Shown here: piece by piece, positions 50,070 to 57,657 of the stretch
Position numbering within the stretch: the first letter of the stretch is position 1
Layout of the letters: each line of letters opens with the position of its first letter
Source: a virus
Length of the DNA stretch: 64,000 bases
IMG/VR virus record: IMGVR_UViG_3300036715_003254
Location: 64,001-128,000 of that record
Strand: one strand, 5' to 3'
Made by a program: the position numbers and the translations under genes
Notes under the pieces: model-generated
What the model was told of the DNA's origin: nothing
What the model saw: the letters and a program-made list of their open reading frames with translations, nothing else
Databases searched by the model: none

Positions 50070-50780
50070 TCAATCCTTTTTACATATTTCAGCTTTTCTA
50101 AAGTCACAATACTCACAAAGTCTGCTTTCACATTTTGGAAATTCTTCAGAAGTTTCTACGCCTCTTACCTTTTCTGCGAGTCCTTTCGCCATTTCTGAAA
50201 GACCACTTCTCTCGAAACAAATTTCGTTTTCGTTATCAGACTCTGGGTAGACATATGTACAGTGTATTCGGTTTACCTCTGGATACATTCTAAACAACCA
50301 AATAGCGTATAGTTTAACTTGCTCAAATGATTGGTATTGAAGATCTTTATACTTACCTGTTTTCCAATCCACAACCCAAAACTCGCCATCTTTTTTGAGA
50401 ATTTTATCGATGAAACCTCTAAATACAGCACTTTTAGAATAGTAATTACAAGGATTAAATTTCTCATCCAAGCCAAAAGCTACTTCTGTTCCAACAGTAA
50501 CAAATTCGTCAGAGTTAAGGTATTTTCCTACAAGACCACCTAAAGACCTTTCGAAAAGATCTTCTATGTCCTTTCTTAAGTCATCTGGAATTTTGTAATC
50601 AGGATTCGGTTTTTGTTCAACAGAGTATTGCTCGGTAAGATGGTGAAAATAGCTTCCTCTCAACAAAGCAATAGATGTTTCTACTTTTGGTCGAATTTTG
50701 TCTATATATGTCAGTTTGAATTTAAAAGGACAAGAATAGAATGTTTCTAACTTTGAATGCGAAAAAGGAGCGTATTTCAT
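50070..50780 (-). CDS. Cas4-like PD-(D/E)XK exonuclease
   Basis: S.SKL..F..CP, RG..D, VDWKTG, Q..LY, C....C..C (four Cys). Confidence 0.85.
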   Translation of the reverse strand: MKYAPFSHSKLETFYSCPFKFKLTYIDKIRPKVETSIALLRGSYFHHLTEQYSVEQKPNPDYKIPDDLRKDIEDLFERSLGGLVGKYLNSDEFVTVGTEVAFGLDEKFNPCNYYSKSAVFRGFIDKILKKDGEFWVVDWKTGKYKDLQYQSFEQVKLYAIWLFRMYPEVNRIHCTYVYPESDNENEICFERSGLSEMAKGLAEKVRGVETSEEFPKCESRLCEYCDFRKAEICKKD

Positions 50781-51067
50781 TTTGTCGCCGCTTTATAATA
50801 TCTGATTGCTTTAGCGGAATTTGGAAATATTTTGTCTGTCCAGTCGAAAACGTGTGACATACCATCAAATTTTCTTAATACATTAATAATGTAGATTCTT
50901 GAGTCAAGATTTTTCTCTGATGTTATAAACACAATCTCTTCTTCAGTATGTTTAAGAATTTTTCCTATTCTTCTTTTAAATGATATTCTTTCGATATCAC
51001 TAAAAAAGAAGCCTTTATAGTCAGAAGTAAGTTTAGATTCTCCAAGATATTTTTCGGCGTTATTCAT
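50777..51067 (-). CDS. ~100-aa repeat-family protein
   Basis: EKYLG.SKLT.DY...FF...KILK....I.FITSEK...AI.YY. Confidence 0.8.
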   Translation of the reverse strand: MNNAEKYLGESKLTSDYKGFFFSDIERISFKRRIGKILKHTEEEIVFITSEKNLDSRIYIINVLRKFDGMSHVFDWTDKIFPNSAKAIRYYKAATK

Positions 51068-51143
51068 ATTTGAATCTCCCTTTTTAATTTCGTATATTTT
51101 ATCTAAAATTTTCTTAGAGAAAGCTTAAAGAGAAAAGAAAAAA

Positions 51144-51446
51144 TTATTTAAACACCTTTTTGTAGTAAGCAATCGCTTTAGCGGAAGATGGGAATTTTTC
51201 ATCCGTCAAATCTCTAATATCAGGTCTTCCTTCGAATCTCTTAAGAACTCTGATGGAATAAAGTCTCAAACCAAAATCTTTATCTTCATATTTTTCCGAT
51301 GTTATGAATATTATCTCTTCATCAGTAGATTTAAGAATTTTTCCTACTCTGCTTTTGAAAATTTTCATATTGATATCACTAAAGAAAAAACCTTCATATT
51401 CGGAAGTGAGTTTAGAGTAACCTAGATATTTTTCGGCGTTATTCAT
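51144..51446 (-). CDS. ~100-aa repeat-family protein
   Basis: Family motifs; own promoter. Confidence 0.8.
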   Translation of the reverse strand: MNNAEKYLGYSKLTSEYEGFFFSDINMKIFKSRVGKILKSTDEEIIFITSEKYEDKDFGLRLYSIRVLKRFEGRPDIRDLTDEKFPSSAKAIAYYKKVFK

Positions 51447-51517
51447 ATTTAAATCTCCCTTTTTGATTTAGAAAATCATACCTAAAAAATTCTTAGAGAA
51501 AGCTTAAAGGAAAGATT

Positions 51518-51657
51518 CTATTTGAACATCATTTCATAGTGAACCGCTCTGCCGTAAACGGCGGTGCTTCCTAACTAGCAGCTTCCAACGAAGCTGAAAC
51601 ACGAAAGGCTTTGTGTTTATATAAGTCCACAAGGTTAGTTCCTAGCCCAAACGACTT
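51518..51657 (-). ncRNA. omega-RNA/right end of tnpB-2
   Basis: Ends GCGGTTCAC at 51539; putative guide TATGAAATGATGTTCAAATAG. Confidence 0.8.
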
Positions 51658-52980
51658 CATACCTCTATATAGTATATGTACTGAAGCTTGATGATCAGGA
51701 TTTGTTTCGTGTCCGCAAGCTGTACATTTAAATTTGTCTTGTTTTGGTCTGTTGTTCTTATCAATATTACCACAGTTTAAACAAGTCATAGAAGTATATG
51801 CAGGATCTACTTTCACAAACAATTTGCCATTAAGCGATTGCTTATATTCAAGCATAGAAGTAAACTGATAGAATGAAGCACCTAAAATAGCTTTGTTTAA
51901 ACCTGCTTTTTGTCTAACATTTTTTCCGTGTTTGACTTCATTTCCTTTAGCAGATTTAGTCATATTTTTCAATTTAAGGTCTTCAACTACTATCAAATCA
52001 AATTTGTTTGTTAATCTTGAAGAGATTTGGTGGTATAGATCCATTTTCTTATTAGTTATTTTCTTATGTAGTTTATTTAATTGTTGTTGTGTTTTATTAT
52101 AGTTTCTCCCTAATTTGGATTTTGTCTTTTTGCTTTTTAGGATTCTTCTTGATTGCTTTCGTTTAAGACGTCTAATTATGTCTTTTTCCGTCAGTATTTT
52201 ACGATTAGAAGAACCATTGTTAATGAAATTTCCTGATTCAACCGATACAAGATTAGATATCGGTTCAAAGAGAAAATCTATTTCACTTGATACTGCAAAG
52301 TTATATACATTCATATCTATACCTATACAATTGTCTTCTTTTAAACTGTTAATAGATATCTGTTCCATTTCCTTTTCAAAAGAAATTCCTACACTAGCGT
52401 AATAGCCTGTTGCATCTCTAGAAATTACAACAGAAGTAAGTTTATATTCTTTCGGCAGTTCTCTATGATATCTTAGTTTGATATTTTGCTTCATCAATTT
52501 CAAAATAGCATTTCTTTTATCTGTTTCTTTAATGCTCACATTTTGATTACTCCATACAGATGATTGTCTTACATCTTTACTTGATTTAAACTTTGGAAAA
52601 CCTATCGATAACGCTTTTGCTTTTTCTTTTGGAGTTATTGCTTTAGAAAGAGCTTTATTTCTTTCATCCACAACATATTTCGAAAATGCTCTTTTGACAG
52701 CTTTAAGGAAATTTATTCTAGCTTGTTGAATGACAACAGAAGAAAATGGTATTTTTCTAAGTTTTAAAGCTCTTTTTATAACTCTGTCGTAAGACGAATC
52801 TTTCCTGTATTTTCTTTGGTCTTTATCAAGCTTTTTGTTTCTTTCTTGTTCTTTTTGCCATAGATTAAGACAGATGTTATAAGATTGGTTATAAACGAAC
52901 ATTTGGTGATCAAGAACTTTCTTTTGTTCTTCAGTAGGATACAACCGATATTTATAACCTAGAAATACAGTTTTGTTCAT
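51571..52980 (-). CDS. tnpB: TnpB RNA-guided endonuclease, copy 2
   Basis: Same length and motifs as copy 1; D-E-D triad present. Confidence 0.95.
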   Translation of the reverse strand: MNKTVFLGYKYRLYPTEEQKKVLDHQMFVYNQSYNICLNLWQKEQERNKKLDKDQRKYRKDSSYDRVIKRALKLRKIPFSSVVIQQARINFLKAVKRAFSKYVVDERNKALSKAITPKEKAKALSIGFPKFKSSKDVRQSSVWSNQNVSIKETDKRNAILKLMKQNIKLRYHRELPKEYKLTSVVISRDATGYYASVGISFEKEMEQISINSLKEDNCIGIDMNVYNFAVSSEIDFLFEPISNLVSVESGNFINNGSSNRKILTEKDIIRRLKRKQSRRILKSKKTKSKLGRNYNKTQQQLNKLHKKITNKKMDLYHQISSRLTNKFDLIVVEDLKLKNMTKSAKGNEVKHGKNVRQKAGLNKAILGASFYQFTSMLEYKQSLNGKLFVKVDPAYTSMTCLNCGNIDKNNRPKQDKFKCTACGHETNPDHQASVHILYRGMKSFGLGTNLVDLYKHKAFRVSASLEAAS

Positions 52981-56384: not shown

Positions 56385-56687
56385 TTAAAGAAAAAATTCA
56401 TTTAACGATTTTTTGTAGTATTCGATAGCATCATCGAGAGTCGAAAAAAATTTATCTTTCCTCCAAAAAATATGAGGTTTTTCGCTTAATCTGGTAAGAA
56501 ACTTGACGAAAAAAAATCTTTCGCCATCGCATTCTTCTGATGTTATAAACGCTATTTCCTCATCAGTATCTTCAAGAATTTTTTCGACTCGGATTTTTAA
56601 AGAATTCATATTCTCATCACTAAAGAAAGAACCTTTATAATCGGCGGCAAGTTTAGATTCGCCAAGATATTTTTCGGCGTTTGTCAT
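56385..56687 (-). CDS. ~100-aa repeat-family protein (start revised)
   Basis: AAGGA RBS before MTNAEKYLG. Confidence 0.8.
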   Translation of the reverse strand: MTNAEKYLGESKLAADYKGSFFSDENMNSLKIRVEKILEDTDEEIAFITSEECDGERFFFVKFLTRLSEKPHIFWRKDKFFSTLDDAIEYYKKSLNEFFL

Positions 56688-56709
56688 ATAAATCCTTTTA
56701 AAAGAAAAT

Positions 56710-56997
56710 TCATTTAGCCGCCTCTTCGTAAAAGGCGACGGCATCAACTAAAGTTGGAAAATATTCGTTTGTCCATTCAACGACTCGAGGGATATCATCA
56801 AATCTTTTGAGAACTCTAATAACAAAAACTCTCTTTTTGTGTTTTTCTCTTGTTATGAAAATTATTTCTTCGTCGCTAGATTTAAGAATTTTTATGAATT
56901 TTCTTTTGAAGATTTTCATTTTATTTATGTCAAAGAAAGAGCCTCTATAATCGGCTGTAAGCCGAGAAACTCCGAGACAATTTTCGATATTTGTCAT
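56710..56997 (-). CDS. ~100-aa repeat-family protein
   Basis: Family motifs. Confidence 0.8.
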   Translation of the reverse strand: MTNIENCLGVSRLTADYRGSFFDINKMKIFKRKFIKILKSSDEEIIFITREKHKKRVFVIRVLKRFDDIPRVVEWTNEYFPTLVDAVAFYEEAAK

Positions 56998-57297
56998 TTA
57001 AACGCCTAAATTATTTTGTTTTTCAAAATATTCGATCGCTTCTTCAGCAGTCGAAAAAACAGGATCTAACAAAATGAAAATACGAGGTTTTTTACGAAAT
57101 TTTTTAAGAGTTCTGATGATGTATATCCTTTTATCAAGAATTTTTTCTGATGTTAAAAACATAATTTTATTTGAAGTGTATTTAAGTATTTTCTCTATTT
57201 GTAAATCACGAGATTCAATAAATTCTTCATCAAAGAAATTGTCTTCGTATTCGGTGGTAAGTTTAGAAGTCCCGAGATATTTTTCGATGTTTTTCAT
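56998..57297 (-). CDS. ~100-aa repeat-family protein
   Basis: Family motifs; own promoter. Confidence 0.8.
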   Translation of the reverse strand: MKNIEKYLGTSKLTTEYEDNFFDEEFIESRDLQIEKILKYTSNKIMFLTSEKILDKRIYIIRTLKKFRKKPRIFILLDPVFSTAEEAIEYFEKQNNLGV

Positions 57298-57363
57298 TTT
57301 GAAACCCTTTTTAATTTCGAAAATTATAACTAAACTTACCTTAAATTACACTTAATGAGAATT

Positions 57364-57657
57364 TTATTTTGCGAGGCTTTCGTAATATTTTATAGCTTTA
57401 AACGGAGTTTCAAATTCCATATTTACAAAGTCATAAACGCCAGGAACATCATCATCTACTCTTTTTAGAATGTTTATTCTATAAATTCTTTTATTGACTC
57501 CTTTTTTAGATACCAGAAAAATCGCTTCTTCGTCGTCATTTTTTAGAACTTTTCCGATTCTGATGTCCAATTTTCTTAAAAATTTACTGTCAAAATAGTT
57601 ACCTCTAAAATCAGAAGTGAGTTTAGTATTACCTAGATATTTTTCGATGTTTTTCAT
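57364..57657 (-). CDS. ~100-aa repeat-family protein
   Basis: Family motifs; own promoter. Confidence 0.8.
   Translation of the reverse strand: MKNIEKYLGNTKLTSDFRGNYFDSKFLRKLDIRIGKVLKNDDEEAIFLVSKKGVNKRIYRINILKRVDDDVPGVYDFVNMEFETPFKAIKYYESLAK

Follow-up and report, generated by a model that had tools for sequence, protein, structure and literature searches.

The virus record IMGVR_UViG_3300036715_003254 of IMG/VR is a phage genome of 138,481 bases (estimated 94% complete, 32% G+C) that carries tnpB genes and omegaRNAs of the IS605/IS606 type. We analysed bases 64001-128000 of it, a stretch of 64,000 nucleotides (nt) here called the window, whose numbering is used throughout. One omegaRNA copy, which we call module D, lacks a tnpB gene and lies in a disrupted gene of the DUF7447 family, and its guide nearly matches four sister genes in the window. 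An earlier note, made from the letters alone, had taken the mismatches in these sisters for escape mutations under self-cleavage by TnpB. This was not borne out, as divergence at the sites that matter for cleavage equals the background of the family, an outcome that the note itself had named as refuting it. With good confidence, though short of certainty, we favor an account in which the modules are IS605/IS606-type remnants with the motif pair TTTAT/TTCAC, the likeness of guide and paralogs comes from paralogy, and there is no escape signal. The differences between paralogs and guide would then be ordinary family divergence, old and mostly synonymous, with no sequence sign of cleavage pressure.

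The guide of module D and its near-matches

Nine intact DUF7447 (PF24239, phrog_4655) paralogs were found in the genome, eight of them in an array within the window (Table 1), and module D sits in codon 18 of one member of what is a 10-copy family. Two pieces of this disrupted member were recognized by nhmmer and hmmsearch, its first 18 codons and a C-terminal piece, and inside it module D and tnpB-1 stand head to head. The segment 37594-37680, between the two modules, is weakly similar to the family (local alignment score 47, attained in 3 of 300 shuffles and by 1 of 300 genome pieces drawn at random) and was not detected as DUF7447 by either program; its proposed place as the middle of the disrupted gene is unproven. 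Three of the six guides in the genome fall inside the DUF7447 family; this concentration in one expanded phage gene family, together with the two modules in one disrupted gene, is of modest interest.

The guide in question is that of module D, not tnpB-1's own. By construction, the guide of each omegaRNA is the DNA flanking its right end, and that of module D is antisense to the conserved N-terminus of the family (SKLTSEY). It therefore comes close to four sisters, with 17-18 of 19 positions matched. The genome holds one exact site and four near-matches, 5 versus the 0.04 expected by chance, an excess that exists only because the sites are paralogs of the gene holding module D. For the sites at 51019 (17/19, with a mismatch at position 2), 51398 (18/19) and 53748 (17/19), the coordinates, 5' flanks and counts of the earlier note were confirmed. 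At 57609 it had the flank right but the count wrong, 17/18 where the match is 17/19. Its statement that none of these four sites combines a perfect target-adjacent motif (TAM) with a perfect seed holds, and the same is true of all the intact paralogs (0 of 9); the guide's own locus does combine them, as TTTAT stands there beside the exact match.

Table 1. Modules, DUF7447 genes and guide sites of the window
Feature	Position	Strand	Remarks
Orphan left end	16792-16904	-	Subterminal hairpin; TTTAT directly 5' (ATAAA at 16900-16904 on the + strand)
Second tnpB-less omegaRNA module	33777-33920	-	Scaffold 33777-33889 ends TTCAC; promoter-like site 33893-33920
Disrupted DUF7447 paralog, C-terminal piece	36040-36150	-	nhmmer E 7.4e-09; hmmsearch E 1.9e-05
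tnpB-1 guide	36131-36150	-	TCTATATTGACTCTTTCTTA; the C-terminal piece of the disrupted DUF7447 gene starts with it
tnpB-1 omegaRNA scaffold	36151-36269	-	Overlaps the gene 3' end; closes with TTCAC at 36151-36155
tnpB-1	36184-37593	-	469 amino acids; Pfam HTH_OrfB_IS605, OrfB_IS605, Cas12f1-like_TNB
Module D promoter (candidate)	37812-37840	+	Sigma-70-like (TCGACT, 17 nt, TATAAT, with TG), a consensus match only; ends 7 nt before the scaffold
Module D omegaRNA scaffold	37847-37956	+	tnpB-less; module spans 37847-37961
Module D 3' end, TTTAT	37957-37961	+	Also Tyr-Lys codons of the disrupted gene
Module D guide	37962-37980	+	ATTCAGAAGTGAGTTTAGA; exact match; follows the scaffold end; antisense to the disrupted DUF7447 gene at its codons 11-17 (SKLTSEY)
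Disrupted DUF7447 paralog, first 18 codons	37957-38010	-	MKNIEKYLGVSKLTSEYK; nhmmer E 3.1e-13; hmmsearch E 1.4e-07
DUF7447 array, eight intact paralogs	50777-57657	-	50777-51067, 51144-51446, 53148-53429, 53506-53796, 56385-56687, 56710-56997, 56998-57297, 57364-57657
Near-match 51019	51014-51037 (TAM and site)	+	5' flank TTTAT (51014-51018); mismatches 2 and 11 from the TAM side
Near-match 51398	51393-51416 (TAM and site)	+	5' flank TTCAT (51393-51397); mismatch 5
tnpB-2 guide	51519-51538	-	Reads like the last six codons of a lost DUF7447 paralog
tnpB-2 omegaRNA scaffold	51539-51656	-	
tnpB-2	51571-52980	-	469 amino acids
Near-match 53748	53743-53766 (TAM and site)	+	5' flank TTCAC (53743-53747); mismatches 7 and 11
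Near-match 57609	57604-57627 (TAM and site)	+	5' flank TCTAA (57604-57608); mismatches 2 and 19

Paralog divergence at the TAM and seed

Mismatches were counted between the nine intact paralogs and the disrupted copy, with the TAM (5 columns) and seed (12 columns) taken together as 17 columns. Per site they came to 0.21 in the first 30 coding bases, 0.24 in the TAM, 0.29 in the seed (guide positions 1-12) and 0.06 at guide positions 13-19. According to the earlier note, an active TnpB-omegaRNA complex cut those paralogs that matched the guide beside TTTAT, and only copies substituted in TAM or seed survived. The lack of any paralog with a perfect TAM and a perfect 12-nt seed agrees with this, as do the purifying selection on tnpB and the conserved omegaRNA structure described below, and the comparison that the note had proposed, of TAM and seed against the rest of the conserved N-terminus, gave a nominal excess of mismatches (42 of 153 versus 61 of 333; odds ratio 1.69, naive Fisher p 0.03). 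That excess, the only result of the analysis to favor escape, vanishes under controls. It is attributed to site-specific constraint, because the intact paralogs show the same profile: with the guide-bearing copy as reference, the mismatch ratio of TAM and seed to the remaining N-terminal columns is 1.50, and with each of the nine intact paralogs in that role it is 0.87-1.84.

When the intact paralogs are compared with one another, the mean pairwise diversity comes to 0.343 for the TAM and seed and to 0.375 gene-wide; of 240 windows of 17 columns, 85 are as low or lower, and the TAM and seed lie below the gene-wide median. For the TAM with the whole 19-nt guide, diversity is 0.280, a value that 29 of 219 windows do not exceed. 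Diversity at third positions is 0.49 within the TAM and seed columns and 0.46 elsewhere. The mismatches in the guide region are mostly synonymous or common to several paralogs (10/63, 2/54 and 23/54 at codon positions 1, 2 and 3), and avoidance of the TAM by synonymous codons was not seen: TTTAT is kept in 3 of the 9 paralogs, including all three that encode Tyr-Lys, each of which uses TAT AAA, i.e. TTTAT on the other strand. Given how often each paralog mismatches outside the target, 0.47 perfect TAM and seed sites would be expected and none was observed, with a probability of none of 0.61, so the lack of a perfect paralog site is what is expected without selection. Median dS is 1.08 among the paralogs versus 0.47 between tnpB-1 and tnpB-2, so most of the paralog divergence probably predates the spread of the modules. 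The guide's own perfect TAM and target also persists, which is hard to square with strong self-cleavage. Taken with these results, we hold escape to be very unlikely. Such a signal would have been one of the rare natural records of TnpB self-targeting; the sequences give none.

Beside the nominal excess, other points weigh against the account that we favor. Nine related paralogs and 17 sites give low power, so weak selection is possible. The low dN/dS of tnpB and the compensatory changes in its omegaRNA mean that the system may be active and cleavage pressure possible in principle. The TAM of these proteins is read from insertion sites, and the TTTAT that ends module D, where 30 other copies have TTCAC and one has TTCAT, is not accounted for.

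TAM and closing motif

A search of all retrieved DNA with the left-end motif turned up eight independent left ends (two in bacterial genomes, five on metagenome contigs and the phage orphan end). TTTAT stands immediately 5' of all eight, and beyond it each has unrelated upstream DNA. In the phage genome TTTAT has a frequency of 0.004 per position per strand. At the right end, TTCAC closes 5 of 6 phage copies, both bacterial copies and 23 of 24 metagenome copies, the latter drawn from a metagenome scan with the scaffold motif that gave 59 loci, 24 of them with a recognizable scaffold end. The 32 right ends comprise 30 with TTCAC, one with TTCAT (metagenome) and one with TTTAT (module D). The element family inserts 3' of TTTAT as its TAM and closes its right end with TTCAC as its transposon-encoded motif (TEM), and to judge by the insertion sites the phage TnpB proteins would use TTTAT as well.

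This agrees with the earlier note, which had proposed (T)TTAT from the orphan left end near 16899; TTTAT does precede that end. It agrees also with published specificities: a passage in PMC3154945 has IS606 inserting next to TTTAT or TTAT, and passages of Meers et al. (bioRxiv 10.1101/2023.03.14.532601) give TTTAT and TTCAC as wild-type TAM and TEM of ISGst2. The call is thus well supported, correct and of use in annotation, but the pair TTTAT/TTCAC was already published for ISGst2 and TTTAT/TTAT for IS606. The note had also placed TTTAT in three paralogs at the position equivalent to the tnpB-1 junction, and this holds for 51258-51262, 53620-53624 and 57481-57485 on the minus strand, where the right-end flank of tnpB-1 begins in the family alignment; a paralog outside the window has a fourth, which makes 4 of 9. 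A separate suggestion, that the boundary of the orphan left end at 16899 is wrong and that homology with module D runs on past it, was rejected, as comparisons of four and of eight left ends uphold the boundary.

The phage TnpBs might read another TAM, in which case the flanks that the earlier note gave for the sites would be irrelevant: they are separated from any TnpA and could have drifted. Against this, the same passages of Meers et al. (bioRxiv 10.1101/2023.03.14.532601) have TnpA and TnpB recognize the same TAM, and ISGst2 TnpB2 using TTTAT with cleavage that is highly sensitive to changes in the TAM. In the paralogs, the positions that correspond to the right-end junctions of tnpB-1, tnpB-2 and module D follow TTTAT-like pentamers. 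We consider a different TAM most unlikely.

tnpB genes and omegaRNAs

Two intact tnpB genes lie in the window, and a third is cut off by the contig start. TnpB-1 and TnpB-2 are 86% identical in protein and 87% in DNA, and both score above the Pfam cut-offs for HTH_OrfB_IS605, OrfB_IS605 (RuvC) and the zinc ribbon. The TnpB-1 motifs GIDMN, VEDL and PDHQAS and both CxxC pairs align with their counterparts in PDB 9j09 (residues assigned by eye), and the translation of tnpB-2 has the same RuvC and zinc-finger motifs. With a dN/dS of 0.17 between the two, tnpB is under purifying selection.

Six omegaRNA scaffold copies were found in the genome, three overlapping the 3' ends of tnpB genes and three tnpB-less: module D (37847-37961), the copy at 33777-33889 and a further one beyond the window. 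Two small deletions are common to all three tnpB-less copies, and each of the two in the window has a high-scoring promoter-like site just upstream. An alignment of eight omegaRNA copies, two of them bacterial, predicts 27 consensus pairs, and compensatory changes occur at 7 of these. A partial right end (hairpin and GTTCAC) was also seen at 53105-53139 on the minus strand, about 125 nt upstream of the tnpB-2 start codon and just past the stop of the paralog at 53148-53429; a tandem right-end remnant in one metagenome locus (L020) resembles it.

The tnpB-1 and tnpB-2 loci are homologous from 1 nt ahead of the ATG onward, so neither has an adjoining left end, and Y1 TnpA (PF01797) had no match across the 138-kb record. 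Lacking both a Y1 TnpA in the record and a left end of the same element, the phage copies are non-autonomous remnants and not whole IS200/IS605-family (IS605/IS606-type) elements. The set thus consists of decayed transposon modules of this type in a phage: two intact solo tnpB genes with overlapping omegaRNAs, the cut-off third tnpB, three tnpB-less omegaRNAs and one orphan left end. That the TnpB proteins may be active in the phage, and by what route the modules arrived, we only infer.

The perfect self-target of module D

Positions 37957-37981 are the only perfect TAM and target in the genome, and they are so because module D ends with TTTAT instead of TTCAC. The two pentamers differ at exactly the two positions that distinguish TAM from TEM. 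This end could be due to two C-to-T changes, to gene conversion from a paralog, or to a deletion. The stretch of module D and tnpB-1 was found as contigs in four metagenome runs, with no RNA run listed among those that contain it, and in one of the four a single contig (X4) joins 36150 to 37957 and skips both tnpB-1 and module D (depth 18.7; shorter side 30 letters; letters between unknown; 85% likeness). This fits all three origins. It is a hint that an allele without both insertions exists, and only a hint because the stretch also attracted contigs from other paralogs and from the tnpB-2 locus. A search of the record for DNA-modification genes that might shield the self-target (TGT/DpdA, QueC and thymidylate synthase families) found none. 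A closing motif turned into a TAM, with a perfect self-target that persists, is an oddity for nuclease studies.

Perhaps module D is an inert relic, whose matches and mismatches to the paralogs are without consequence. Its left-end hairpin lacks the left arm and is flanked by CTCCA instead of TTTAT; its closing motif is changed; its terminal hairpin is followed by GGTTTATATT, a T-rich tail flagged as terminator-like, which might end transcription before the guide; and the self-target persists in the genome. On the other hand, the scaffold is conserved (91-93% identity to other copies before the variable hairpin), the 9-pair terminal stem is perfect with a promoter-like site 7 nt upstream of the scaffold, and a broken left end blocks transposition, not omegaRNA function. 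We regard an inert module D as a possibility to be taken seriously, if on balance a doubtful one. The opposite case would be that the two selected TnpBs and the promoter-bearing stand-alone omegaRNAs are kept as a working trans-guided system of homing or competition, in which module D cuts insertion-free DUF7447 alleles of related phages during mixed infections and the phage's own paralogs are kept off-target. If so, the TTTAT at the end of module D would be a live self-target that the phage tolerates or shields; we think this unlikely. The account by decayed remnants and paralogy, set out at the start, remains the one that we prefer to both.

Relatives and host

No INPHARED phage matched the window at 35400-38700 or 50000-58000, and queries of IMG/VR with TnpB-1 and with a neighboring gene found no near relative of the record: the former gave two distant loci only, which were not used, and the latter no match. 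A scaffold-motif query of IMG/VR gave seven loci, rejected as chance matches in unrelated G+C-rich contigs. The DUF7447 alignment had no matches as a query, and a DUF7447 hidden Markov model had none among all fetched relative loci.

A scan of genome contigs for relatives gave two loci, and a search of genomes returned matches for 6 of the 301 from the class (E <= 1e-80) and for 2 of the 184 from the family (E <= 1e-100), each in single copy. In two bacterial genomes, a tnpB of 62% identity is accompanied by the same omegaRNA. The element is complete in one of these, L015, with a left end, an intact Y1 tnpA that faces away (Pfam E 1.8e-43), tnpB and a right end; only there were a Y1 TnpA and a left end found in the same element. 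The TnpB proteins of the phage show about 60% identity to proteins ascribed to Aliarcobacter butzleri and Sulfurospirillum, so its host is probably a member of the Campylobacterota.

Other features of the window

Among the paralogs of the DUF7447 array lie tnpB-2 and four genes of nucleotide-metabolism type; matches to PHROG at 53852-56326 are NTP pyrophosphohydrolase-like, dNMP kinase, thymidylate-kinase-like and one of unknown function. A 67-nt repeat occurs in 10 copies and comprises the first bases of an open reading frame (ORF), the ribosome-binding region and a promoter-like AAGCTT...TATAAT. Its sites include 38004-38070, 51063-51129, 51442-51508, 53423-53489, 53790-53856, 57290-57356 and 57654-57720, and the copies lie across the 5' end and the region upstream of six intact DUF7447 paralogs and the disrupted one, and in three other places. 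Upstream of tnpB-2 (about 53011-53076) there is a weaker, more diverged similarity to the paralog promoter regions. Since the paralogs at 56385-56687 and 56710-56997 lack the promoter repeat that 6 of the 9 intact copies have and are separated by almost no gap from the paralog upstream, they are probably co-transcribed with it.

Beyond the array, a Pfam match on the ORF at 57750-58889 marks a family-B DNA polymerase fragment, followed by an opposite-strand ORF at 58934-59731 with repeated GKKHSEETK-like motifs, which may be a homing-endonuclease-type gene, and by a 520-amino-acid ORF at 59728-61290. It looks as if the polymerase gene has been split by the opposite-strand ORF. Near the start of the window, a 3545-amino-acid ORF (3040-13677) is full of periodic repeats of about 170 nt.

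Comparison with known systems

The nearest parallel in motifs is ISGst2 of Geobacillus stearothermophilus with its nuclease GstTnpB2. In the passages concerned, Meers et al. (bioRxiv 10.1101/2023.03.14.532601) describe TTTAT as the TAM beside the left end and TTCAC as the TEM that closes the right end, two motifs that differ at positions 3 and 5, a guide taken from the DNA flanking the right end, and protein-less derivatives (palindrome-associated transposable elements, PATEs) beside full elements, all as in the phage. The phage differs in that its modules lie in a phage, its record has no TnpA, its tnpB genes have no left end and one module has TTTAT in place of the TEM; the two are likened here by motifs and layout. 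IS606 of Helicobacter pylori (Kersulyte 1998 as cited in a passage of PMC3154945) shares insertion by a 5' TTTAT or TTAT, and its host is of the same phylum as the nearest tnpB relatives. Unlike IS606, the phage copies consist of tnpB and a right end only, and here too the comparison is one of motif and layout. In the bacterial L015, tnpA and tnpB face apart, which is the layout of IS605 and IS606.

ISDra2 TnpB, whose omegaRNA complex was reportedly treated by Karvelis in 2021, has a TAM-proximal seed of about 12 nt and the TAM TTGAT, unlike the TTTAT of the phage. Both are RuvC and zinc-ribbon nucleases (E about 2e-14 to structures 8exa and 8h1j), with an omegaRNA that overlaps the 3' end of the gene and a five-base TAM 5' of the target. 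The phage protein is longer (469 versus 408 amino acids), and the similarity lies mainly in the C-terminal half.

Stand-alone omegaRNAs that lack a nuclease are reportedly a part of OMEGA systems, from work by Altae-Tran in 2021. The tnpB-less phage modules resemble them in having scaffold and guide without an adjacent nuclease gene and a nuclease encoded elsewhere in the genome, and differ from them in that the three share deletions of their own and promoter-like sites and in that one lies inside a multi-copy phage gene. The elements are, then, remnants of a known kind of transposon in a new host, a phage.

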